Below, piece by piece: positions 120 to 52,511 of a stretch of 64,000 nucleotides of DNA (position 1 is its first letter; every line of letters begins with the position of its first letter). Made by a program: the position numbers and the translations under genes. The notes under the pieces are model-generated. The model was not told the DNA's origin. It ran no database searches and worked only from the letters and a program-made list of their open reading frames with translations. The DNA comes from a virus, in IMG/VR virus record IMGVR_UViG_3300042508_000221, positions 1-64,000 of that record; one strand, written 5' to 3'.

Positions 120-599
120 ATGAAGGGTCGCCCCCCAACGCCGAAACACATCCTCGCCATGCGTGGTTCCAAGCACGCCAAGAACCGCGAGGAGCTTGGT
201 GCCGCGCCGCCGGCCCCGATCCAGCCTGCCGAGTGGCTGAAACCTCGGGCGAAGGAGATTTTCTCCCGTGTCGTGGCGTGGCTGGACGGCATGGGCACCC
301 TGGCCGAATCCGACGAACACGTCATCACGAGGTACGCGACGACCTACGTTATGTGGGAGTACGCGACCCAGCAGCTCCAGGCGGTCGACTCAGCCTACGT
401 TGAGGTTCTGGCCCCCGACGGCTCGATCCGATTCTCTCGTCCAGTGGCAATGGCAATGCAGGCAAAAGAGTGCGGCGAGGCGCTTCGGCACCTCGAGACC
501 GTGCTCGGCCTGACCCCCGGCGATCGAACCCGCCTCGGCTACGGAGCCGTGAAGGTGGTCGTCGATCCGATGGATGCTCTGCTCGCCAAGCGTGGTTGA
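120..599 (+). CDS. terS: Terminase small subunit (P27 family)
   Basis: N-terminal GRPPTP motif, P..L...AK..F segment and C-terminal LGLTPGDRTRL; lies directly upstream of terL. Confidence 0.9.
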   Translation: MKGRPPTPKHILAMRGSKHAKNREELGAAPPAPIQPAEWLKPRAKEIFSRVVAWLDGMGTLAESDEHVITRYATTYVMWEYATQQLQAVDSAYVEVLAPDGSIRFSRPVAMAMQAKECGEALRHLETVLGLTPGDRTRLGYGAVKVVVDPMDALLAKRG

Positions 600-3162
600 T
601 ATCCGCGATTTCATCGGCCTGCTGAAGCACAGTCGCGGCGACTTTGCGGGGAAGCCTTTCGTCCTCGAGCGATGGCAGGACGAGTACCTCGACAAGCTCT
701 TCAACACGAAGAAGGCCGACGGCCTGCGGCAGTATCGAACGAGTTTACTTGCGTTGCCCCGCAAGAATGGAAAAGCGCTGGCCCTGGATACGCCTGTGCT
801 GACGACCACAGGCTGGTCGACAATGGGCGATCTGAATGTCGGCGATCACGTCTTCCACCCCAATGGCTACCCGGTAAGAGTAATTGCGGCGACAGAGGTA
901 ATGCACGGGCGGCCTTGCTATGGGGTCAAGTTCCGCAAAGGCGAAACTATCGTCGCTGACGCGGAGCATTTGTGGAAAACGGTGGCCTACAACGGCGGCC
1001 CCGGCGGCGGACGTGGCTTCAGGCACGCCGACCGCGGCGGCGAGGCTATCCGCACGACGCGGACGATTGCCAAAAGCTGCACGCTGAGTGGCAGGAAACA
1101 GGCTAACCATTCAATCCCAGTTGGCGGTGCCATCCAGCTCCCAGCGAAGAGCCTTCCGATAGACCCCTATGTCTTTGGTCTCTGGCTCGGCGACGGCTCA
1201 AAAACGCAGCCGATGATTGCCGTCGGTGCCGGCGACGAGCAGACGATCAGTAACATCGAGGACTGCGGCTACGACACGCGAGTCACGAGGCGAGTCACGC
1301 AAGGCAGGCCAAACAATGTGGTCAGCCTCGCGGGCCAGCTTACTCCAGACGGCCGTCGAGTCGTCGATCACCTGCGGTCCTTGGGTGTATTTGGCAACAA
1401 GCATGTACCTCGCGAATACATCGAATCGTCTGTCGAGCAGCGGCTCAGTCTTTTGCAGGGTCTCATGGATTCGGACGGATACGCGAGCGAGAGCGGATTG
1501 TGCGTATTCGTGAACAACAATAAGGCTATTGTTGACGGACTCGCCGAGGTCGTGCGTTCACTTGGGATGAAGGCTTATGTGACGGCGAAAAAGAGCACCA
1601 GCGCCGGCAAGGACTACGGAATCATCTATCAGGTAGTGTTTACTGCGTGGCACCCCACGCGAATTTTTCGCCTTTCGCGAAAACAGGAAAGAATCAAGCC
1701 GCGCCCAGAGAAAAGAAGCAAAACTGGCTTTCACTACATCGCGGAGTGCCAGCCGACCGACTCCGTCCCCGTCCGCTGCATTCAAGTCGATTCGCCTGAC
1801 GGGATGTTCCTCGTCGGCCGCTCGCTCATCCCGACGCACAACTCTGCGCTCTGCGCCGCCATCGGCATCTACATGATGTGCTGCGACGACGAGGGGGCAG
1901 AGGTGATCGTCGCGGCCGGCGACCGCGCGCAGGCTTCGCTCCTGCACACGGCTGCAAAGCAGTTCGTCGAGGGTTGTCCGTCACTGATGAAGAGATGCCG
2001 CATCTACAGAAATAGCATCGTCTTCCCTGAGAAGAACTCCACGATGCTGTGCATCAGCAGCGAAAGTGCCACGAAACACGGTTACAACCCAAGCTGCTGC
2101 CTCATTGACGAAATGCACGTCTTCCCCGACCGCGAGCTGATCGACGTTCTGGAGACCGGCATGGGTGCCAGAAGCCAGCCGCTGACCATCTACATCACGA
2201 CGGCCGGCACCGACATGGACGGCCCGTGCTACAAGGACTGGCAGCGGGCACTCAAGATTCGCGACGGCGTCCTGAAGGACGACTCGTTCCTGCCCTGCAT
2301 ATACGCCGCCGATCCCGAGGACGACCCGTTCATCGAGGAGACTTGGAAGAAGGCCAACCCGAACTACGGAATCACGCTAAAACCCGACTATTTCAGGCAA
2401 TTTTCGGAAAAAGCCAAGTCCTCACCCACCGACGAAGTCGTCTTCCGCACGCTGCACTTGAACCAGTGGCAGAAGTCGGAAACCAAGTGGATCAGGCACG
2501 GTGCCTGGGACGCCAACAACGTGCCGCTGCGGCCGACGGCGGGGCGGCCGTGCTGGTGCGGCGTCGACCTCGCCAGCACGTTCGACACGACGGCGTTCGT
2601 GGCGATCTGGCCTGACGCCGATGGAACGTATGACGTTCACGCCCACTTCTTCATCCCCGAGGAGAACGCGCACAGGCGGGCGAAGGAGGATCGGGTGCCG
2701 TATCACGCCTGGGCGGATGCGGGTTTTGTTACACTAACAGATGGCGACATAACGGATTACGACGCCGTCCGCGACTACATTCTCTCGTTCGCCGAGAAGA
2801 ATGCGGTTCGGGGTATTGCAATCGACCGCTGGAATGCGGTGCATCTGACGACGCAGCTCGTATCGGAGGGAATCGACGTTAAGCCGTTTGGACAAGGTTT
2901 TGCGAGCATGTCAGCGCCGAGCAAGCTGCTCGAAACCTTGACCATCTCCAGACGCTTGCGGCACGCCGGCAACCCTGTTCTGGCGTGGCAGATGTCGAAT
3001 GTTCAGGTCAAGATCGACGATGCCGGGAACATAAAGCCTACTAAGAAACACTCACATTCGACGGCCCGCATCGACGGCGCGGTCTCTCTGATCATGGCCC
3101 TCGGTATCTCCTCCAGCGAGAACCACGGCAACACCGACGAACCAACCCTCATGGTGCTCTAG
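592..3162 (+). CDS. terL: Terminase large subunit, intein-containing (GTG start at 592 preferred; ORF open from 574)
   Basis: Walker A RKNGK[intein]S, Walker B CLIDEMH, ITTAG, nuclease GVDLA, C-terminal IDGAVSLIMAL. Confidence 0.95.
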   Translation: MVDIRDFIGLLKHSRGDFAGKPFVLERWQDEYLDKLFNTKKADGLRQYRTSLLALPRKNGKALALDTPVLTTTGWSTMGDLNVGDHVFHPNGYPVRVIAATEVMHGRPCYGVKFRKGETIVADAEHLWKTVAYNGGPGGGRGFRHADRGGEAIRTTRTIAKSCTLSGRKQANHSIPVGGAIQLPAKSLPIDPYVFGLWLGDGSKTQPMIAVGAGDEQTISNIEDCGYDTRVTRRVTQGRPNNVVSLAGQLTPDGRRVVDHLRSLGVFGNKHVPREYIESSVEQRLSLLQGLMDSDGYASESGLCVFVNNNKAIVDGLAEVVRSLGMKAYVTAKKSTSAGKDYGIIYQVVFTAWHPTRIFRLSRKQERIKPRPEKRSKTGFHYIAECQPTDSVPVRCIQVDSPDGMFLVGRSLIPTHNSALCAAIGIYMMCCDDEGAEVIVAAGDRAQASLLHTAAKQFVEGCPSLMKRCRIYRNSIVFPEKNSTMLCISSESATKHGYNPSCCLIDEMHVFPDRELIDVLETGMGARSQPLTIYITTAGTDMDGPCYKDWQRALKIRDGVLKDDSFLPCIYAADPEDDPFIEETWKKANPNYGITLKPDYFRQFSEKAKSSPTDEVVFRTLHLNQWQKSETKWIRHGAWDANNVPLRPTAGRPCWCGVDLASTFDTTAFVAIWPDADGTYDVHAHFFIPEENAHRRAKEDRVPYHAWADAGFVTLTDGDITDYDAVRDYILSFAEKNAVRGIAIDRWNAVHLTTQLVSEGIDVKPFGQGFASMSAPSKLLETLTISRRLRHAGNPVLAWQMSNVQVKIDDAGNIKPTKKHSHSTARIDGAVSLIMALGISSSENHGNTDEPTLMVL
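775..1842 (+). mobile_element. Class 3 intein (356 aa) with LAGLIDADG homing endonuclease in the terL P-loop
   Basis: Starts ALALDTPV, ends PTHN followed by Ser; DAEHLW, VRCIQVD and PTHN give the W-C-T signature; GLWLGDG and LQGLMDSDG endonuclease motifs. Confidence 0.9.
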
Positions 3163-3163
3163 C

Positions 3164-4810
3164 GTGGACAAGATCGACGAGGAAGTCTCCGATCTGATTG
3201 AGCTTCGCGGCAATCTCTCCCGTATTTTCGAGGAGATTTCCAACACCAGACGCACGGCATCAGGCGTCACCGTCTCGCCAGAGACCGCTCTTGAATGCAC
3301 TGCCGTATTGGCGTGCGTTCGCGTCTTATCGGAATCGATTGCCAGCCTCCCGTTCAACGTCTACCGCAGGCTCCCCGGCGGCGGCAAGGAAATCGCCGAA
3401 GAACAGCACCTCCACGAGGTCATCTGCTACCAGCCCAACTCGTGGATGACGGGCTTCGAGTTCCGCGAGCTGATGCAAAGCTGGCTCCTCCTCTGGGGCA
3501 ACGCCTACGCCCACATCAAGGGCGGCCGTCAGGGCGGCGTGACTGAGCTGATCCCTCTGCATCCGTCGCGGATGGAGGTCAAGCGGCTCACCAACGGCAA
3601 GCTACGGTACTACTACACCGAGCCGACGACGCCGATCCAGCCACAGATCAACGTGACGGAGTATCGGCAGGACGAGATTTTTCATCTTCGCTGGCTCAGT
3701 TCGGACGGCGTGACCGGATTCGTTCCGACGACGCTCTCCAGGGACGCCATCGGACTGGCCCGAGCGACCGAATTGCACTCTGGTGCATTCTTCGGGAACG
3801 GTGCGACACCGGGCACCTATATCGAAACCGATCAGCCCCACAAGCCCGAGGTGCTGTCAAGATTCAAGGAACAGTGGAACGACGCTCATTCCGGCCCCGA
3901 CAAGGCTTACAAGACCGTTGTCATGCCGTTCGGCTTCCATCGGAAGCAGGTCGAGGTTCGGAATGACACGGCCCAGCTCATTGAGACCAGGAAGTATCAA
4001 GTCGAAGAGGTGGCTCGGGCATACCGCGTGCCGCCGCACCTGCTCGGCGATCTGTCGAACGTGCGTTTCTCGACGGTGGAGCAATCGGCCATCGACTTCG
4101 TCACGTTCTCGTTGATCCCGTGGTGCCGCCGATGGGAATCGGCCTGCCGCCGCGATCTAGTGGTCGATGACAAGCAGTATTTCTGTCAGTTCGACGTGAA
4201 TGCCCTGATGGCCGGTGACTATGCGGCGAGGTCGCAGTTCATTCGGGAGATGGCGAACCTCGGGGCACTTGATGTCGACGAAATCCGCGCTCAAATCGGC
4301 TACAACCCGCTACCGGACGGCCTGGGCAAGAAGCGGTTCGTGCAGGTCAACATGCAGTTGCTGGAGGCGTTCACTCCCGACAACCCGACCGGCCAGAAGC
4401 AGCAGCCGGAAGCGACCCCCTCGCCCCCGGTCAGCGTTGACGGGACGCCGGAACCGTCGGCCACCGACGCTCCCGCAGCCGCCGAGGACGCTCGCCAGCT
4501 TGCCGGTGCCGAAGTTATCTTCAAAACGACTCTTCGTCGACTCGCCGCCGTCGAAGCCGACGGAATCCTCGAGCGACGTGCCAAGCCCGAGAAGATCGCG
4601 ACGTGGTTCGATCAGACGAGCCAGCGGATGCGGGAAGAACTTCGCGAGGCCGCAGAGGCCACTGGCCGAGACATCGACAAGTTCGTAGGAGATTGGGTGA
4701 ACCGCTCGCGAGACCTCTTGCTTGAGTGTCATCGCAGCGGTCAGAAGTACGAAACCGTCACTGAAGGCTGGTGCGACAAGCACCTGACAACCGATGCCGC
4801 AAGCACCTGA
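3164..4810 (+). CDS. Portal protein (HK97 family) with C-terminal extension
   Basis: AVLACVRVLSESIASLP, LLLWGNAY, IPLHPSRM, EIFHLR, ARAYRVPPHLLG, E.R...GYNPLP. Confidence 0.95.
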   Translation: MDKIDEEVSDLIELRGNLSRIFEEISNTRRTASGVTVSPETALECTAVLACVRVLSESIASLPFNVYRRLPGGGKEIAEEQHLHEVICYQPNSWMTGFEFRELMQSWLLLWGNAYAHIKGGRQGGVTELIPLHPSRMEVKRLTNGKLRYYYTEPTTPIQPQINVTEYRQDEIFHLRWLSSDGVTGFVPTTLSRDAIGLARATELHSGAFFGNGATPGTYIETDQPHKPEVLSRFKEQWNDAHSGPDKAYKTVVMPFGFHRKQVEVRNDTAQLIETRKYQVEEVARAYRVPPHLLGDLSNVRFSTVEQSAIDFVTFSLIPWCRRWESACRRDLVVDDKQYFCQFDVNALMAGDYAARSQFIREMANLGALDVDEIRAQIGYNPLPDGLGKKRFVQVNMQLLEAFTPDNPTGQKQQPEATPSPPVSVDGTPEPSATDAPAAAEDARQLAGAEVIFKTTLRRLAAVEADGILERRAKPEKIATWFDQTSQRMREELREAAEATGRDIDKFVGDWVNRSRDLLLECHRSGQKYETVTEGWCDKHLTTDAAST

Positions 4811-5267
4811 AGGCGTGATCGACGCCCTGCAAGCCTCCGTTCGGCTGCACATGACCGCGATTGAGACGTATCAGTCGCAGGCCGAGCACTTCGATCGATG
4901 GGGCTACGGGAAGCTGGCCGACACGAGCCGCTTCGAGGCCGAAGAGGAACGCCGCCACCTGCATGAGGTGCAGGCTCGGCTTGAATACTACGACGTTCAG
5001 CCGGCCTACGACCACGACCAGCCCGACTGGCCGCGGCACGACTTCGAGGGCATCCTCGCAGCCAACCTGTCGCTTGAAACCGCCGCCGCGGAGGCCGAGC
5101 GAGCCAACGTGACGGCCTGCCGTGCCGTCGGCGACGAGATTTCCGCCGTCATCTTCACCCGGTTGCTCGAAGGCAGCGAAGAAGCGGTGGCCGCGATCGA
5201 AGCAAAACAGCGTGTGATCGAGCAGATCGGTGTGGACAACTACCTCGCGAATCAGGTGACGGCATGA
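4794..5267 (+). CDS. bfr: Bacterioferritin-like protein with degenerate ferroxidase and heme sites
   Basis: 157 aa, colinear by eye with Bfr: VIDAL..., AI..Y, WGY.KLA, EEERRH, NLSLE, D.IS, and the C-terminus IEQIGVDNYLANQ. Confidence 0.8.
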   Translation: MPQAPEGVIDALQASVRLHMTAIETYQSQAEHFDRWGYGKLADTSRFEAEEERRHLHEVQARLEYYDVQPAYDHDQPDWPRHDFEGILAANLSLETAAAEAERANVTACRAVGDEISAVIFTRLLEGSEEAVAAIEAKQRVIEQIGVDNYLANQVTA

Positions 5268-6931
5268 GCAATGAAATTGAACGGCGCACGACGGTCTCGG
5301 ACGCGACGATTGAGTACCGAGACATGGGAAACGGCGAGAAGAAGCCTGTGATTTCGGGCTACGCCGCCGTCTTCAACGCTGAGAGCCGCAACCTGGGCGG
5401 CTTCGTCGAGACGATTCACCCGAATGCGTTCGACGAAGTGCTGGCCGAGAACCCCGATGTCATCGGCGTGTTCAATCACGACCGCAATCTGCTCCTCGGC
5501 CGCACCGGAAACGGGTCGATGAAGCTCACGAAAGACCCCTATGGTCTTCGTTACGAGATCACGCCGAACGAAAACACGTCCATCGGCCGCGACGTGATCG
5601 AATGGGTGAAGGATAGGACAGTCGTGGGGTCAAGTTTCGCCTTCGCAATCCGTCGGGATAATGGCGATTCGTGGTCTACGGACAATACTCGTGGCATTCG
5701 GAAGCGAGAAGTGAGAGCAATTGGGCTGCTTGAAGATGTCGGGCCAGTGGTTCGGCCTGCATATGACTCGTCCAGCGTGGTGGTGAGCCGTCGAGCCATC
5801 GAAATGGCCCTCGGCGAGAGCCATCGGCCCATCCAAACGATGGCGAACGCGGCGAAACGCGGTCTGAAGCTCGCCCAGAAGGCAGAAAACATCGATTCTC
5901 GCCTCCTGTGCATCGCCGAACGTGTCGCAAACCGCGAAATCGTCTCCGTCGAGGAGGTTTCGTACCTCTCGGGAGTCTACGGACGCTGTTTGGCGGCGAA
6001 AGTGACGGGCTGGTCGGGCACGCCGGCCTGGATCGAGTGGCAACTGGCCGGCGGAGATGCAGGGCAGAAGTGGGTGGATCGGCGTGCTGCTTCCGCGCAG
6101 CCGGAAGCAGCCCCGTCGGTGGACTCTGCCACTGAAATCCCTGTTTCCGACGCTCCTGCCGAGGAACGAGCCGCCTCCGACGTGAATCTGAAGCCCACCG
6201 CGGGCATGGCAGCCGCCGCGAAGCGAGGATTGGCCCTCCACGAGGAAGGCCGATCGGGCGACGGGCTCAAGCCCGAGACGGTGGCGCGTGCCGGCAAGAT
6301 CGCCGACCGCGACGAACTCACTCCCGAGCACGTTCGCGAGATGCGGGCGTGGTTTCGGCGTCACAAGGTCGACAAGAAGGCCGGCTGGAGCGCGAAAGGC
6401 GCTGAGACCCCCGGCTATACCGCCTGGATGCTCTGGGGCGGCGACCCGGCGTGGCGGTGGAGTGAGGCCAAGGTCTCACAGATGGAGCGTGCCGCTGGAA
6501 AGCGAGACATCGTCGAAGGCGAGGAGATCGAGGAAGAGTACGAATCCATGCTCTCGCCCGCGAACCTCGCCCTGGCTGAGTCCTATGAGGGCATCGCCGA
6601 GGAATTCGGCGCGTTCTCGCAGAACGATGCCCACTACATGACCGAGAACCCGTTTGCCAAGGACGGCATGAAGTGCAGCAACTGCGTCTTCTTCGAGAGC
6701 GAGGAAGGCAGGTGCTACATCGTGCAAGGCGAGATCGCCGCTGATGCGATCTGCAAACTGTGGATCATCCCCGAGGAGCGTATGAGCGAAGAAAAGAAGC
6801 CGGAACCCGTCGACGAGAAGGTCGCCGAGGACATGCGGGCGGCCAAGGAACAGTTGGACATCGACGTGAAGCTGGCGGCTCTGAAGGCCACAATCCTTCG
6901 GACTCAGTTGCACGGTCTTCCGAAGGCTTGA
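5264..6931 (+). CDS. HK97-type prohead protease with two repeated AAKRGL...W..GGD domains and a C-terminal HiPIP-like Cys4 domain
   Basis: ISGYAAVFN, FNHDRNLLLGRT, GSSFAF, VGPVVRPAY; C-terminal KCSNCVFF..GRCYIVQGEI....ICKLW. Confidence 0.9.
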   Translation: MSNEIERRTTVSDATIEYRDMGNGEKKPVISGYAAVFNAESRNLGGFVETIHPNAFDEVLAENPDVIGVFNHDRNLLLGRTGNGSMKLTKDPYGLRYEITPNENTSIGRDVIEWVKDRTVVGSSFAFAIRRDNGDSWSTDNTRGIRKREVRAIGLLEDVGPVVRPAYDSSSVVVSRRAIEMALGESHRPIQTMANAAKRGLKLAQKAENIDSRLLCIAERVANREIVSVEEVSYLSGVYGRCLAAKVTGWSGTPAWIEWQLAGGDAGQKWVDRRAASAQPEAAPSVDSATEIPVSDAPAEERAASDVNLKPTAGMAAAAKRGLALHEEGRSGDGLKPETVARAGKIADRDELTPEHVREMRAWFRRHKVDKKAGWSAKGAETPGYTAWMLWGGDPAWRWSEAKVSQMERAAGKRDIVEGEEIEEEYESMLSPANLALAESYEGIAEEFGAFSQNDAHYMTENPFAKDGMKCSNCVFFESEEGRCYIVQGEIAADAICKLWIIPEERMSEEKKPEPVDEKVAEDMRAAKEQLDIDVKLAALKATILRTQLHGLPKA

Positions 6932-6951
6932 TAGTCTACAGGTAGACACAT

Positions 6952-7072
6952 TGCTTCACGACGGATGTCGTGAGGAGCAGTGCGAGCGTCTTGAGGATTC
7001 AAGCACGCGGCGCGCTAGCGGGATCACCCGCCGGCCGCCGCATCGTGCGTTAGGCCGGCTCAATCACAGGAG
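6952..7072 (+). promoter_or_regulatory. Structured capsid-gene leader with several GGA-loop hairpins (CsrA-type sites)
   Basis: TCACGAC-GGAT-GTCGTGA (6956-6973), CTTGA-GGAT-TCAAG (6990-7003), GCGGG-ATCA-CCCGC (7018-7031), ACAGGAG SD (7066-7072). Confidence 0.65.
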
Positions 7073-7082
7073 CAGGCCAAAC

Positions 7083-8435
7083 ATGGCATCGAATCTCAAG
7101 CGTCTTCAGGAACGTGCCGCGGCTGTCGCCGCTCGGATGACCGAACTGTCCGGTATCGAGGATCGCTCGGCCGAGCAGACCAAGGAACTCATCTCGCTCG
7201 GCACTCAGGCCGACGACCTGAAGACTTCCCTCGACTTCGAGGAGCGGATCGCCGCCAAGGAAGCCGAGCTGCGTGCGGTGGTCGAGAAGGCCGCCCCCGC
7301 CCCGGCCCCGGTTGCCGAAGTGGCCGCCAAGGCCGAGGACAAGAAGGTCGAGATTCGTTCGATCCAGCCCCACCACACCAGCCTGCGGGCGTTCAACGAC
7401 GGCCCCGAGGCCGTCGAGAGCGCGTATCGATGCGGCCGGTGGCTCCGGGCCCATATCTTCAAGAACGCCGAAGACCTTCGCTGGTGCAAGGATCACGGCG
7501 TCGAGAGCCGTGCCCTGGGCGAGAGCAGCAACTCGTCGGGTGGCGCTCTAGTGCCCGAAGAGTTTGCGGCCCGCGTGATTCGTCTCGTCGAAAACTACGG
7601 CACCTTCGCCGCGAGCAACGTCGAGAAGGTCACGATGACCCGCGACACCCTCGTGATCCCCAAGCGGGTTACGGGCACCGCAGCGTACTTCGTGGGCGAA
7701 GGGACGGCGGTAAACGAGAGCGAGCCCACTTATTCCAATGTGCAGCTTATCGCCAAAAAGCTGGCGGTTGGCACTCGGATGTCGAGCGAAATCGTAGAGG
7801 ACGCTCTGGTTTCGATTGCTGATGCTGTGGCAGTGGAGTTCAGCACCTCGCTGTCGCTCAAGCAGGATATGTGCGGTTGGTTGGGTGACGGCACCTCCAG
7901 CTTCGGCGGAATCCACGGCGTGGTGCCGAAGATCAACGACGGCACTCACACCGCTGGCGTGCTGACTGCCGGCACGGGTGCGACGGGCTTCGAGACCCTG
8001 ACCGTGACCGACTTCATCAAGCTGATCGGCCGGATGCCGCTGTACGCCCGCCAGGGTGCAGCCTTCTACATCTCGCCGGCCGGTTTCGCTGCCTCGATGG
8101 CCCGCCTCCGCTACGCGGCTGGTGGCAACACCGTCGAGCAGGTCGGTGGCGGCGTGAACGAGCAGTTCCTCGGCTACCCGGTGAACCTCGTCCACGTCAT
8201 GGACGGCACGCTCGGTGCCGACGCTGGCAAGGTGAAGGTGCTGTTCGCGAACCTCGGCCTGTCGAGCATCTACGCTCGTCGCCGTGACTTCTCGGTCAAG
8301 ATGTACGACCAAGTGTACGCCACGACCGACCAGTTGCTCCTCCAGGGAACGCTTCGCTTCGACATTAACCACCACTCGCTGGGCGACAACACGACCGCCG
8401 GCCCGGTGGTGGCCCTCAAGACCGCGGCGTCCTGA
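7083..8435 (+). CDS. Major capsid protein (HK97 fold, N-terminal coiled-coil delta domain)
   Basis: SD CAGGAG before ATG 7083; SSGGALVPEEF, YFVGEG, KKLAVGTRMSSEIVED, FLGYPV. Confidence 0.95.
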   Translation: MASNLKRLQERAAAVAARMTELSGIEDRSAEQTKELISLGTQADDLKTSLDFEERIAAKEAELRAVVEKAAPAPAPVAEVAAKAEDKKVEIRSIQPHHTSLRAFNDGPEAVESAYRCGRWLRAHIFKNAEDLRWCKDHGVESRALGESSNSSGGALVPEEFAARVIRLVENYGTFAASNVEKVTMTRDTLVIPKRVTGTAAYFVGEGTAVNESEPTYSNVQLIAKKLAVGTRMSSEIVEDALVSIADAVAVEFSTSLSLKQDMCGWLGDGTSSFGGIHGVVPKINDGTHTAGVLTAGTGATGFETLTVTDFIKLIGRMPLYARQGAAFYISPAGFAASMARLRYAAGGNTVEQVGGGVNEQFLGYPVNLVHVMDGTLGADAGKVKVLFANLGLSSIYARRRDFSVKMYDQVYATTDQLLLQGTLRFDINHHSLGDNTTAGPVVALKTAAS

Positions 8436-46618: not shown

Positions 46619-48262
46619 ATGCAAGTTGCAAGGCTCATCGGTGGTGCTGGAACAGGGAAGACAACGGAGTTACTCGGGATCATGAAGTCGGTGCTCGAGC
46701 AGATCGGCGACACGCCGTCTGCCATCGGGTTTGCCAGCTTCACGACGGCGGCCCGCGAGGAGATGGTGAACCGGGCGGCAGCGGCGTTTGACTGCCACCC
46801 CTCCATGCTGGACAAGCATGGCTGGTTTCGGACGGTGCATTCGACGTGCTTCAAGATGCTCGACCTGAAGACCGAGCAGATGCTCACCAGGGACGACAAG
46901 GCGTCGAAATGGATCGCCGACCGGCTCCGCGTCTCGGTCTCGTGGAAGAAGGTCGGGGATAGCGGGTACGCGGCCTGTGTGGGCGACGACGAGGCGGCTG
47001 CCTCCCTGACGCTCTGGGACATCGCCAGAAGCCGTATCGTGCCTTTGGCCTCTGTTCACGCCGAGAAGTCCCATGCGGGGCTGGACGTGCCTCCTATCGC
47101 CACCGTGAGGCATTTCATCAGGAAGTACGAGGATGCCAAGCGGATCGACGGCAAATCCGACTTCGTGGACATCCTCGGCCGGTATGCCGGAGTGAGGTTC
47201 CCTTTGGAGGGGCCGGAGGAAATGGAGCCGGAGGGTGATTTGCCAGAGGGCGTGCAGGCGTGGGTATTCGATGAGGCTCAGGACTCGTCAGCACTGGTCG
47301 ATCGCGTCTGCCGGCGGTTGGCGTATGGGCGGGGGGTCAAGTGGACGTACCTAGCCGCGGACCCTTTTCAGTCGGTCTTCGGCTTCGGCGGCGCAGACTA
47401 CAACAACTTCCTGTCGTGGAACGTCGACAAGGAGCGGACGATGCCGCAGTCCTGGCGGTGCCCAAAGCCCGTAATGGAGCTTGGCGAGCGGTGCTTGCGG
47501 CGGATGCACAAGGGATACTTCGACCGGAAGATCGCCCCTGCATCCCACGACGGGTGCGTCATCCGCGAGGCGTCCGTCGAGCGGGCGCTGAGTCAGGTCG
47601 ATGGTAGCCGCTCGACACTGGTGCTAGCTCGCTGCAACTACTCGCTGGCGAAGTTCTCCCAGGTGCTCGAGTCTAGGCGGATTCCTCACGCCGGCATCAA
47701 CGACAAGGACGACACAAAGGGGCTGGTGGCCTACAACGCCTACTGGAAGCTTCAACACGGCCAGGGCATTGGAGGGCATGAGTGGAAGGCGGCCATCGAG
47801 CTGACGCCCGTAAAGGCTACTGGTGACGCCATCTTTCTGCGGCGGGGCGCGAAGTCGGCCTGGAGCAAGGGTGCCAGGGACGACGTTGACTTCATCGCGG
47901 CCGACGAAATCGCCGACCTCGGCGGCGTGACTCCGGCCCTGATGGAGCTGATCCAGTCTGGCGGATGGGCGTCCCTGCTGGACGGCGGGAAGAAGTGGTA
48001 CGACTCTGCAAAGAGGCACGGGCCGGCGACCGCGACGAAGCCGAATGTTCGTCTGTCGACCATTCACGGGGCCAAGGGGATGGAGGCCCAAGACGTGATC
48101 CTGGCGACCGAGACGGCCGCCCGCGTCGAGCAGGAGCGAGAACTTGACCCACGGTGCCACGACGAGGAGTGCCGGCTTGAGTACGTCGGCGTCACTCGGG
48201 CAAAAGAACGGCTGATTGTGTGCGAATCTGACGAACCCTACGCAATGGAGCTGCCACGCTGA
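46619..48262 (+). CDS. UvrD/Rep-like SF1 helicase
   Basis: GGAGTGKTT, FRTVHS, DEAQD, DPFQS, STIHGAKGME, YVGVTRAKE. Confidence 0.9.
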   Translation: MQVARLIGGAGTGKTTELLGIMKSVLEQIGDTPSAIGFASFTTAAREEMVNRAAAAFDCHPSMLDKHGWFRTVHSTCFKMLDLKTEQMLTRDDKASKWIADRLRVSVSWKKVGDSGYAACVGDDEAAASLTLWDIARSRIVPLASVHAEKSHAGLDVPPIATVRHFIRKYEDAKRIDGKSDFVDILGRYAGVRFPLEGPEEMEPEGDLPEGVQAWVFDEAQDSSALVDRVCRRLAYGRGVKWTYLAADPFQSVFGFGGADYNNFLSWNVDKERTMPQSWRCPKPVMELGERCLRRMHKGYFDRKIAPASHDGCVIREASVERALSQVDGSRSTLVLARCNYSLAKFSQVLESRRIPHAGINDKDDTKGLVAYNAYWKLQHGQGIGGHEWKAAIELTPVKATGDAIFLRRGAKSAWSKGARDDVDFIAADEIADLGGVTPALMELIQSGGWASLLDGGKKWYDSAKRHGPATATKPNVRLSTIHGAKGMEAQDVILATETAARVEQERELDPRCHDEECRLEYVGVTRAKERLIVCESDEPYAMELPR

Positions 48263-48738
48263 TGGACACGCTTTTCGATGTATCTCCCGACGAACCTGTT
48301 CGGTCTAAAGGGAAACGCCTTACTCGCGCGCAGCCTGTTGCTCCCTTACAAGAACCAGAAAAGCCGGTTCTTTTTAGGGCATTCCAGCAGGACAGAGCGA
48401 TCCTGCCCATCGGCATGATCGATCACACCTACGACTGCGCCGACGCCGCCTGCGGCACGCAGCTCCACGACATCCTCCACGAGGATGGCGGCGAGTGGTA
48501 TCTGTCGTGCGTGTTCTGCCATACCGGCCAGTGGGTAAAGGCGATCAAGGGTCACCTGAAGCCAAAGGAACGTGAGTTCGTGCTGCGAGACGGCCGCTTC
48601 GCCGGCCTCACGCTGCCCGAGGTGGAGAAGCAGCCGCGTGGCCTTGACTACCTGAAGTGGGCGGCCGAGAGCCATCCGCGACCGACTGTCAGGGCCGAGT
48701 GCCAAAGACATCTAGACAAGACATCTGGTGTTCGTTAG
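48262..48738 (+). CDS. Hypothetical protein with Zn-ribbon-like Cys pairs
   Basis: C...CG, CVFC; GRFAG.TL.EV...YLKW. Confidence 0.6.
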   Translation: MDTLFDVSPDEPVRSKGKRLTRAQPVAPLQEPEKPVLFRAFQQDRAILPIGMIDHTYDCADAACGTQLHDILHEDGGEWYLSCVFCHTGQWVKAIKGHLKPKEREFVLRDGRFAGLTLPEVEKQPRGLDYLKWAAESHPRPTVRAECQRHLDKTSGVR

Positions 48739-50936: not shown

Positions 50937-51125
50937 ATGGCACTCTGCTTAACACGTCGCCCCGGTCAGAAGCTGATTCTGGATCGACCGCATATCGAGA
51001 TCACGGTGGAATCCGTGGTCGGCAAGACGGTGCGTCTGGTCATCGACGCCCCCAGGCACGTCAAGATCGTGCGTGAGGAGCTGATCTATCGGGCTCCGCC
51101 GAAGACCGAGGAGGCCGCGTCGTGA
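50937..51125 (+). CDS. csrA: Carbon storage regulator CsrA/RsmA homolog
   Basis: L.LTRR.G..L.....IEITV..V.G..VRL.IDAP..V.I.REEL. Confidence 0.9.
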   Translation: MALCLTRRPGQKLILDRPHIEITVESVVGKTVRLVIDAPRHVKIVREELIYRAPPKTEEAAS

Positions 51126-51526
51126 TCGTCACAGTCACCAAGCAGTTTCACTTCTACGCAGCTCACCGCAACGAAGAGATCGGCGGCAAGTGCGCGAACA
51201 TTCACGGGCATCGCTACGGTCTGACCGTCACGGTAGCAGGACAAAGAGAAGGCAGCGTGACCGTTCTTTTTGAGCAATTAGAGCGATGGGTGCAGGCTGA
51301 AATAATCGATCCGGCAGATCACTCGCTCATGCTGAACCGCGAAGACCCAGCGGCCGATGCCCTTCTGGCATCCGGCGCATGCGGGAAGGTCTTCTGGGTG
51401 AGCGGCCCGACATCGTGCGAAAACATTGCAGAGCTTTTTTTCTCAATGTTGCAGTCAGTCTGCGCCTCGGTCGTTTCGGTAACGCTGAAGGAAACCGACA
51501 CATCCTCAGTCACGGTGACGGCATGA
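51122..51526 (+). CDS. queD: 6-carboxy-5,6,7,8-tetrahydropterin synthase
   Basis: F.AAH, C.NIHGH.Y, DH..L, TSCENIA, ET. Confidence 0.9.
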   Translation: MIVTVTKQFHFYAAHRNEEIGGKCANIHGHRYGLTVTVAGQREGSVTVLFEQLERWVQAEIIDPADHSLMLNREDPAADALLASGACGKVFWVSGPTSCENIAELFFSMLQSVCASVVSVTLKETDTSSVTVTA

Positions 51527-52107
51527 AGCTAAAACTTGCCAGCCAGGGCGTGTATTGGACGATCCAAGGCGAAGGCCACTTCGCAGGCGAGCCGATGGTT
51601 TTCATTAGGCTGGCAGGATGCTCCGTCGGCTGTCCGAAGTGCGACACGAACTACAAGCCCTCTCGCGAGGCAACGGTTGATGAGATCGTCGCCGAGTGCG
51701 TGCGTGCGCGCGACGAGAACGGCCGTGCGAAGTACGTCTGGGTGACCGGCGGCGAGCCAACCGACCAAGACCTGACCAAGCTAAATCGGGCGGTTTGGGA
51801 CGCTGGGTTCAAGCCGTGTCTTGCGACCAGTGGCATACGGAAGGTCGGGGGTCACTGGTGGTGGCTTTCCGTCTCGCCACATGCGAACGGCTTTGAGCAG
51901 CGGATGGGTGCCGAGCTGAAGCTCGTGCCTGGGCTGAACGGCCTCTCGTTGGACGACATCGACCTCTCTGGCACCGACTTCGGATATCGCTATGTCCAGC
52001 CTATGGCGGGCAACGCGGAGTCTCTTGTCGCCTGCATCGAGTGGGTGAAGACCCACAGCGACTACACCCTCTGCCAGCAGAGCCACAAGGAATGGGGTGT
52101 GCCATGA
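51523..52107 (+). CDS. queE: 7-carboxy-7-deazaguanine synthase (radical SAM)
   Basis: TIQGEG...G.P.VFIRLAGC..GC..CDT, TGGEP, SVSP, QP, Q.HK. Confidence 0.9.
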   Translation: MKLKLASQGVYWTIQGEGHFAGEPMVFIRLAGCSVGCPKCDTNYKPSREATVDEIVAECVRARDENGRAKYVWVTGGEPTDQDLTKLNRAVWDAGFKPCLATSGIRKVGGHWWWLSVSPHANGFEQRMGAELKLVPGLNGLSLDDIDLSGTDFGYRYVQPMAGNAESLVACIEWVKTHSDYTLCQQSHKEWGVP

Positions 52108-52511
52108 AGGCCGTCTACCTAGCTGGGCCGATCAACGGGTGCTCCGACGACGAGTGCATGGCGTGGCGTTCCAGAGCGCGGAAGCTCCTTGAAGGGCAGT
52201 TCGACATCTACGACCCGTTGGATCGCGACTTTCGTGGCTGCGAGGCTATTTATGCAGAAGCAATTGTCAACACAGACCTGCACGCGATCGCCGCCTGCGA
52301 CTTTTTGCTCGTGAACGCTTCTCGCCCCTCCTGGGGGACGGCGATGGAGGTGGTTCGGGCATGGGACAGCGGCAAGGGCGTCGTCGCGTTCTCCGATGCG
52401 GAAGCACCAAGCCCGTGGCTGACGGTTCATACACACGCGATCGTCAAGTCGCTCGAGGCCGCCGTTGTGTTCGTGATGAACTTCGACGCGATGGCGAGGA
52501 GCCGCACATGA
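52104..52511 (+). CDS. Nucleoside 2-deoxyribosyltransferase-like protein
   Basis: VYLAGPI, WR, DL..I..CD, SWGTAME, SPWL. Confidence 0.8.
   Translation: MKAVYLAGPINGCSDDECMAWRSRARKLLEGQFDIYDPLDRDFRGCEAIYAEAIVNTDLHAIAACDFLLVNASRPSWGTAMEVVRAWDSGKGVVAFSDAEAPSPWLTVHTHAIVKSLEAAVVFVMNFDAMARSRT

Follow-up and report, generated by a model that had tools for sequence, protein, structure and literature searches.

The stretch of DNA analysed here, referred to as the window, comprises positions 1 to 64,000 of the IMG/VR virus record IMGVR_UViG_3300042508_000221, which derives from a lake-water phage of about 74 kb. The left end of the window is occupied by the head operon, in which an open reading frame (ORF) at positions 4794–5267 of the plus strand, between the portal and prohead protease genes, encodes a protein of 157 amino acids (aa) that has a full-length bacterioferritin (Bfr) fold, with a resemblance far beyond chance. 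The gene is remodelled and not decaying, and it is an accessory, mobile cassette that is optional in the head operon. The reading that we tentatively prefer, while holding it with less than even confidence, is that the product is an optional protein of the procapsid or virion interior with a single-metal site.

The Bfr-like subunit and its probable metal site

The Pfam Ferritin family (PF00210) matches residues 9–140 of the protein with an E-value of 1.8e-12 and a score of 47.8 bits, above the gathering cut-off of 24.5. The match to the bfr equivalog model TIGR00754 (65.9 bits) reaches about half of its cut-off of 125.55. The sequences of 48 solved Bfr-family proteins align with it colinearly, without insertions or deletions and at a constant offset of +1, the best being 5zur (E 2.3e-13). 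The AlphaFold2 model of the monomer, built from an alignment of 68 sequences, has a predicted local distance difference test score (pLDDT) of 97.9 and consists of four long helices (residues 8–35, 39–65, 84–111 and 115–145) followed by a short fifth (147–152). The best Foldseek match of this model is the Streptomyces bacterioferritin ScBfr (PDB ID: 7y6f; TM-score 0.95, root mean square deviation 1.1 Å), and the leading matches are all Bfr; the ESM Atlas returns generic bacterioferritin clusters plus one viral ferritin-like cluster. A preliminary description, made from the letters of the window alone, had aligned the ORF with bacterioferritin by eye and proposed a ferritin profile search and structure prediction as checks; the alignment, the profile score and the monomer model all bear out the assignment.

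The residue changes named in that description are also correct by the alignment. In E. coli Bfr numbering, the ferroxidase ligands E51, H54 and E94 are retained, while E18, M52, E127 and H130 are replaced by H19, R53, S128 and A131, respectively, of the phage protein. Three of the six di-iron ligands (E18, E51, H54, E94, E127 and H130) are thus replaced, and with R53 in the position of the axial ligand Met52 the haem methionine is lost. The cluster of H19, E52, H55 and E/D95, with small residues at the place of the second iron, suggests a single-metal site. An earlier proposal that the protein is a remodelled metal binder fits the conservation of these four positions and of S128–E129; metal binding itself is a prediction from this residue pattern.

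The replacements are shared by a large family. A word-indexed search yielded 179 near-length relatives, and an exhaustive search of 50%-identity representatives yielded 55 clusters at an E-value of 1e-10 or better; key sites were scored across 256 sequences, of which 159 have at least 35% identity to the query. H19 is present in 157 of these 159, E52 and H55 are near-invariant, and either E or D stands at position 95. S or T is found at position 128, E at 129 and A, S or G at 131, and helix D contains no histidine. Arginine occupies position 53 in 120 of the 121 closest relatives, and methionine is found there in no family member. Ordinary Bfr sequences (below 33% identity) have E, E, M, H, E, E and H at the canonical positions. 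Other conserved residues that are specific to the family are S15, L63, E64, E102, A118 and G127. The ratio of non-synonymous to synonymous substitution (dN/dS) between the window gene and seven close loci is 0.09–0.19, indicating purifying selection, and the reading frame is intact in all loci. Because the replacements are fixed across some 160 relatives and dN/dS is this low, the gene is regarded as remodelled rather than decaying.

In a FastTree phylogeny, the sequences with His at the position of E18 (the H-type family) form one clade (support 0.94), whose nearest neighbours (support 0.92) are metagenomic sequences that lack the haem methionine and have threonine at position 127. The H-type family is a viral or metagenomic clade that is probably specific to phages and derived from haem-free bacterioferritin-like proteins. 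No match to the protein was found among 50,697 GenBank phage records, nor in PHROGs at an E-value of 0.01 or better; scans of viral sequences with the members P0141, P0151, P0144 and P0139, and of metagenomes with P0133 and P0139, found nothing, and our literature search found no publication describing the family.

Only seven residues of the protein precede helix A and the chain ends with the E helix of Bfr, leaving no terminal cargo-loading peptide. The E helix and N149 are conserved in the family, which is no more than suggestive of an iron-mineralising cage of 24 subunits. The protein is acidic, with an isoelectric point (pI) of 4.6, and has no basic tail, so that DNA binding in the manner of Dps is unlikely.

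The head operon and the recurring gene position

The source record (74,090 bp, rated 100% complete) is mostly covered by the window. The head operon, on the plus strand, begins with the small terminase gene (120–599) and the large terminase gene (574–3162), the latter being its first large gene, followed by the portal gene (3164–4810; PF04860, E 1e-93), the Bfr-like gene, the S78 prohead protease gene (5264–6931; E 1.7e-36) and the gene of the HK97-type major capsid protein (6951–8435; PF05065 at residues 197–472, with an N-terminal extension of about 190 aa). In the protease, the S78 match spans residues 20–180 and is followed by a C-terminal extension of about 370 aa, near the end of which lies a HiPIP-like domain with four cysteines (Cys4; C-x2-C ... 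C ... C-K-L-W; 6590–6817, +). The Bfr-like gene starts with ATG within the last 17 nucleotides (nt) of the portal ORF, and its stop overlaps the protease start by 4 nt as ATGA, exactly as first described, and the identities of the flanking genes confirm that it was rightly placed among head genes. Neither a promoter-like site nor a terminator-like site on the plus strand was seen near the gene in a simple consensus scan; the gene is probably translated together with those of the portal, protease and capsid protein.

The order portal–Bfr–protease is found in 34 of the 38 IMG/VR loci in which the protein was detected, and a later scan added 13 further contigs, giving a total of at least 47. The same junction between portal and protease recurs in a head module of different protein families. 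The locus L047 belongs to an unrelated phage (guanine plus cytosine content 52%) in which the Bfr-like gene is the only homologue of the window; its product is of the H-type and 44% identical, and the gene is flanked by that of a lambda-type portal (PF05136) on one side and that of a fusion of ClpP-type protease, scaffold and capsid on the other, overlapping each by 4 nt.

A second hint of head association comes from P0152, a distant member with an N-terminal extension of 55 aa that matches phrog_2423. The phrog_2423 motif (MPL..GSS..IS.NI.ELI..G.P.DQAAAIAY; 45 aa) occurs in at least 196 viral contigs, among them the loci L048–L127, either as a stand-alone ORF of about 45 aa or at the head of DUF2213 head-maturation proteases, NUDIX proteins and a DUF6582 protein; examples are L053:6001-7857, L059:6001-7425, L093:6001-7308 and L056:6001-6138. 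In two annotated loci the motif gene stands between portal/MuF and capsid genes, and the motif may be a leader for head targeting or processing. Furthermore, structures in BFVD contain ferritin/Dps-like folds that the model matches (TM-score 0.66–0.71) within proteins named 'prohead protease' and within long 'Dps' proteins of uncultured tailed phages.

The phage is common in lake-water metagenomes: in at least 10 coded studies, no less than half of the words sampled from the head region are present. One freshwater metatranscriptome contains only two 151-nt contigs, both of which lie within the capsid gene, with none over the Bfr-like gene, and among the DNA contigs none joined across that gene; these two results have no bearing on the expression of the gene or on deletion variants. 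The capsid protein has no match among GenBank phages, and the portal matches there are generic (38% identity) and point to no host.

Several other features of these phages were observed. The large terminase contains an insert of about 330 aa (approximately nt 778–1773, residues 69–400) with Hom_end/LAGLIDADG matches, which looks intein-like; it is missing in L002, L008, L009 and L020, where residue 68 is joined straight to residue 401. Upstream of the small terminase, several relatives carry three or four zinc-ribbon-like, Cys-rich segments (CxxC ... CxxC) in tandem (L002:140-760, L003:1412-2030, L018:137-900, L028:335-950 and L032:140-760), none of which is found at that place in the window. 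Elsewhere in the window, genes of QueD/PTPS-like (PF01242), radical-SAM QueE-like (PF04055) and nucleoside deoxyribosyltransferase-like proteins stand in a row (51122–52511), and a gene for a trypsin-like serine protease (PF00089; 54099–54830) lies beyond them.

Possible roles of the protein

In the reading preferred here, the family keeps the whole architecture of the Bfr subunit, including the short E helix. The second iron site is gone (E127S, H130A/S), as are the haem ligand (M52R) and further residues with which Bfr handles iron, and a histidine has become fixed at the position of E18. The remaining His2-Glu2/3 cluster would probably bind one metal ion and not serve as a di-iron ferroxidase. 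Encoded by an optional cassette of the head operon, the protein would most likely be taken into the interior of the procapsid or virion as a non-essential, cargo-like protein; inside, it might bind a metal such as iron close to the packaged DNA, or it might be passed on to the next cell. By our estimate of volumes, a 12-nm 24-mer would fill less than 1% of a capsid large enough for 74 kb, which would make packaging physically possible. A head-associated role is favoured because the gene occupies the same junction in two unrelated head modules, because one member carries the leader of head proteins, and because ferritin folds occur in other head proteases.

A number of observations weigh against this role. 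The second type of head module is documented by the single locus L047; in the main clade the protein has nothing beyond the Bfr fold that could act as a targeting peptide; and a search for fused forms of more than 275 aa gave none, although this is weak evidence. Bfr-like alleles have been swapped between backbones: in L028 the portal, protease and capsid proteins are 88–90% identical to those of the window and the Bfr-like protein only 55%. In four relatives (L030, L031, L034 and L035; 51–54% identity) the gene is part of the replication module, where it follows genes for a primase-polymerase, a UvrD-type helicase and another protein of 157 aa and precedes that of a DNA methylase. One of these, L030, lies in a 75.6-kb record (G001) of a distant relative, which has capsid (46% identity), head-tail, tail and replication genes in common with the window; its terminase is a different one, and an ORF of 1754 aa stands where portal and protease would be. 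Further, 18 loci of a sister clade have a homologous terminase, portal (46–64% identity), protease (40–44%) and capsid protein (63–68% where covered), and there the protease gene begins 9–21 nt after the portal gene, with no Bfr-like gene between; five such records (41–67% complete) have no Bfr-like gene anywhere in the part covered. This head can therefore be built without the gene. With its context mixed in this way (the junction kept in the main clade, the gene absent in the sister clade and placed elsewhere in four relatives), it is seen to be an accessory, mobile cassette.

Two neighbours in these relatives deserve mention in their own right. The 1754-aa ORF of G001 (L042:1514-6778) has DUF5824 as its sole match and lies directly upstream of the 46%-identical capsid gene. 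The gene of about 157 codons that follows the UvrD-type helicase belongs to no known family and is present both in the window (48262–48738) and in the relative (L030:5482-5955), at 30% identity (E 7e-9); paired Cys/His positions suggest a small metal-binding fold. In the window this homologue lies right behind the phage's own helicase, but there is no Bfr-like gene at that place.

The preliminary description had proposed a survey of synteny and had counted sporadic placement among the signs against its proposals; the order holds in at least 47 contigs, and placement is sporadic to the extent that the 18 sister loci lack the gene and four relatives carry it elsewhere. Its suggestion of capsid cargo has fared similarly, with indirect points in its favour (the L047 junction, the P0152 motif and the BFVD folds) set against the lack of a targeting extension, the absence in the sister clade and the place in the replication module.

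The latter observations lend weight to a second explanation, possible though on the doubtful side, that the protein is a free cytoplasmic accessory, that is, the product of an auxiliary metabolic gene. A ferritin-like cage would then buffer or sequester iron, limit Fenton damage or hold iron for the Fe-S proteins of the phage, the place in the head operon would set only timing and dosage, and the protein would at no stage enter the capsid. Dispensability for the head module, placement in the replication module, exchange as a cassette and the lack of a targeting extension favour it; the protein is also acidic like ordinary Bfr and has no DNA-binding tail, and the phage encodes iron-dependent proteins, namely the radical-SAM QueE-like enzyme and the HiPIP-like domain. 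Phage-borne Bfr has been interpreted as an iron-utilisation gene (bioRxiv 10.64898/2026.05.02.722434). However, if the gene were an accessory inserted at random, one would not expect to meet it between portal and protease in two head modules that are not homologous, nor to see it fused to a head-protein motif, as in P0152. Moreover, replacements affect the ferroxidase centre and the haem ligand as well as His46 of the inner surface and the acidic residues D34 and D132 of the B-pore, which makes classical iron oxidation and storage doubtful. His46, D34 and D132 were mapped by transferring their roles in Bfr of E. coli and P. aeruginosa to the aligned positions.

It has also been suggested, in the preliminary description, that the protein is a dominant-negative subunit of host Bfr that mobilises iron. 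More generally, it could co-assemble with ferritin or Bfr cages of the host, as a dominant-negative or L-chain-like partner, and so release or redirect host iron. Natural hetero-oligomeric Bfr cages with inactive or haem-free subunits do occur among the matches (9iig, SoBfr12; 9bts; 9h1u), and the nearest non-family sequences in the tree likewise lack the haem ligand and have threonine at position 127. However, no cellular Bfr is more than about 30% identical to the protein, and residues of the haem pocket and dimer interface, the positions of which we presume from our own mapping onto the alignment, have turned charged. The sole match in cellular genomes is a 1.2-kb contig binned in a metagenome-assembled genome of the Microbacteriaceae, a weak host hint only. 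In 301 sampled Microbacteriaceae genomes no TIGR00754 match reaches the cut-off, and only weak ferritin/Dps-like matches were found; if the hint is right, there is therefore no host Bfr to poison. The dominant-negative proposal is thus unsupported, and co-assembly in any form is improbable.

Slightly less credible still, in our judgement, is a redox or iron partnership with the HiPIP-like [4Fe-4S] domain of the adjacent protease, either as an analogue of the Bfr–Bfd pair or with the Bfr-like protein as an iron donor for cluster assembly. A domain of Fe-S type on a capsid protease is unusual in itself. The Pfam HIPIP model scores 16.4 bits on the Cys4 region, below its cut-off of 22; a profile of 19 sequences searched against the PDB returns HiPIPs as its best four matches, all with the four cysteines aligned (3h31, E 0.0017; PioC). 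The two genes are adjacent and appear to be translationally coupled, and in all main-clade loci that extend over the region the Cys4 domain is conserved within the protease ORF. In addition, a family-conserved loop of the Bfr-like protein, W79-P-R-H-D, aligns with the region of BfrB that contains E81, which we take to be a Bfd-binding residue. However, the two parts occur independently. The Cys4 domain is found in at least 577 IMG/VR contigs (among them loci L140–L210), including head modules with only distantly related portals, and in the 18 sister loci it occurs without the Bfr-like gene; in L047 and G001 the Bfr-like gene occurs without the Cys4 motif. An obligate pair was rejected on this co-occurrence, and a Bfr–Bfd-like partnership is therefore unlikely as a general function; there is also no haem for an electron relay. 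A complex prediction of two Bfr-like copies with the HiPIP-like domain and a 4Fe-4S cluster, run without controls, scored 0.00, gave no answer and was not used.

Finally, that the gene is a functionless, decaying relic of a captured host bfr gene, as the loss of the haem ligand and of half of the six ferroxidase ligands might suggest and as the term 'degenerate' in the preliminary description misleadingly implied, can practically be dismissed, since selection is purifying, the reading frame is intact in all loci, the model is confident and the replacement residues are themselves invariant in about 160 sequences down to 35% identity.

Comparison with known systems

Ferritin-family proteins are the textbook iron stores of cells. 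The closest known relatives of the phage protein are the bacterioferritins (TIGR00754, PF00210; E. coli 1bcf, S. coelicolor 7y6f, P. aeruginosa BfrB 3is7), with which it shares the five-helix subunit fold, colinear over 150 residues, as well as E51, H54, E94, Y25, the W35–G36 turn, N148 of the E helix and an acidic pI. It differs in having only 22–30% identity and a score of about half the equivalog cut-off, in the loss of the di-iron site (E18H, E127S, H130A/S) and of the haem ligand (M52R), and in being phage-encoded within a head operon. A phage-specific branch with a rebuilt metal site under selection would represent new chemistry on an old scaffold.

Mammalian L-ferritin is a subunit of the ferritin fold that lacks a working ferroxidase centre, and cage-type subunits of this kind are likewise found in the hetero-bacterioferritins of Shewanella (SoBfr12, 9iig) and Acinetobacter (9bts). 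Absence of the haem methionine and a threonine at position 127 also mark the nearest non-family sequences, and the best PDB sequence match, 5zur, shares the threonine. In contrast with the phage protein, these known inactive or haem-free subunits work with a catalytic partner encoded nearby, and the record of this phage yielded no second gene for a ferritin fold; histidine at position 18 is, furthermore, specific to the viral family.

Other phages also encode folds of the ferritin superfamily, such as the non-haem ferritin of an uncultured marine phage and the Dps-like protein of Lactobacillus phage Semele in BFVD, and several of these lie inside head proteins or have been detected by virion mass spectrometry; gp217 of the Vi01-like phage Sajous1 is a ferritin-like virion protein detected in this way (PMC10892097). 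These proteins are at most 18% identical to the one described here, are of Dps or Ftn types and not derived from Bfr, and none has the H19/S128 signature. The occurrence of the same junction in two different head modules makes the H-type family a concrete candidate for a non-scaffold protein cargo of phage heads, and as the phage is common in lake-water metagenomes, any iron-related role would matter ecologically too.

The likeness to the encapsulin systems (EncFtn/Flp, IMEF) is confined to the arrangement of genes, in that a gene of the ferritin superfamily likewise adjoins those of an HK97-fold shell. Encapsulin cargo has a terminal targeting peptide and an active di-iron site, and EncFtn is a half-ferritin that forms a decamer. 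In the phage system the Bfr fold is complete, the protein has no extension, its di-iron site is disabled, the phage packages DNA and the gene is optional. A wider proposal, which we consider rather unlikely though worth stating, is that tailed phages load a bacterioferritin-derived cage into procapsids as optional cargo, as a living phage counterpart or a precursor of encapsulin–ferritin compartments; the single-metal site would then shield the packaged DNA against damage driven by iron, or bring metal to the next host. A preprint that discusses encapsulins with cargo of ferritin-like type has proposed that procapsids are evolutionary neighbours of encapsulins and might themselves contain cargo and have biochemical functions (bioRxiv 10.1101/2025.06.18.659913); with the portal–Bfr–protease cassette, this proposal becomes directly testable.

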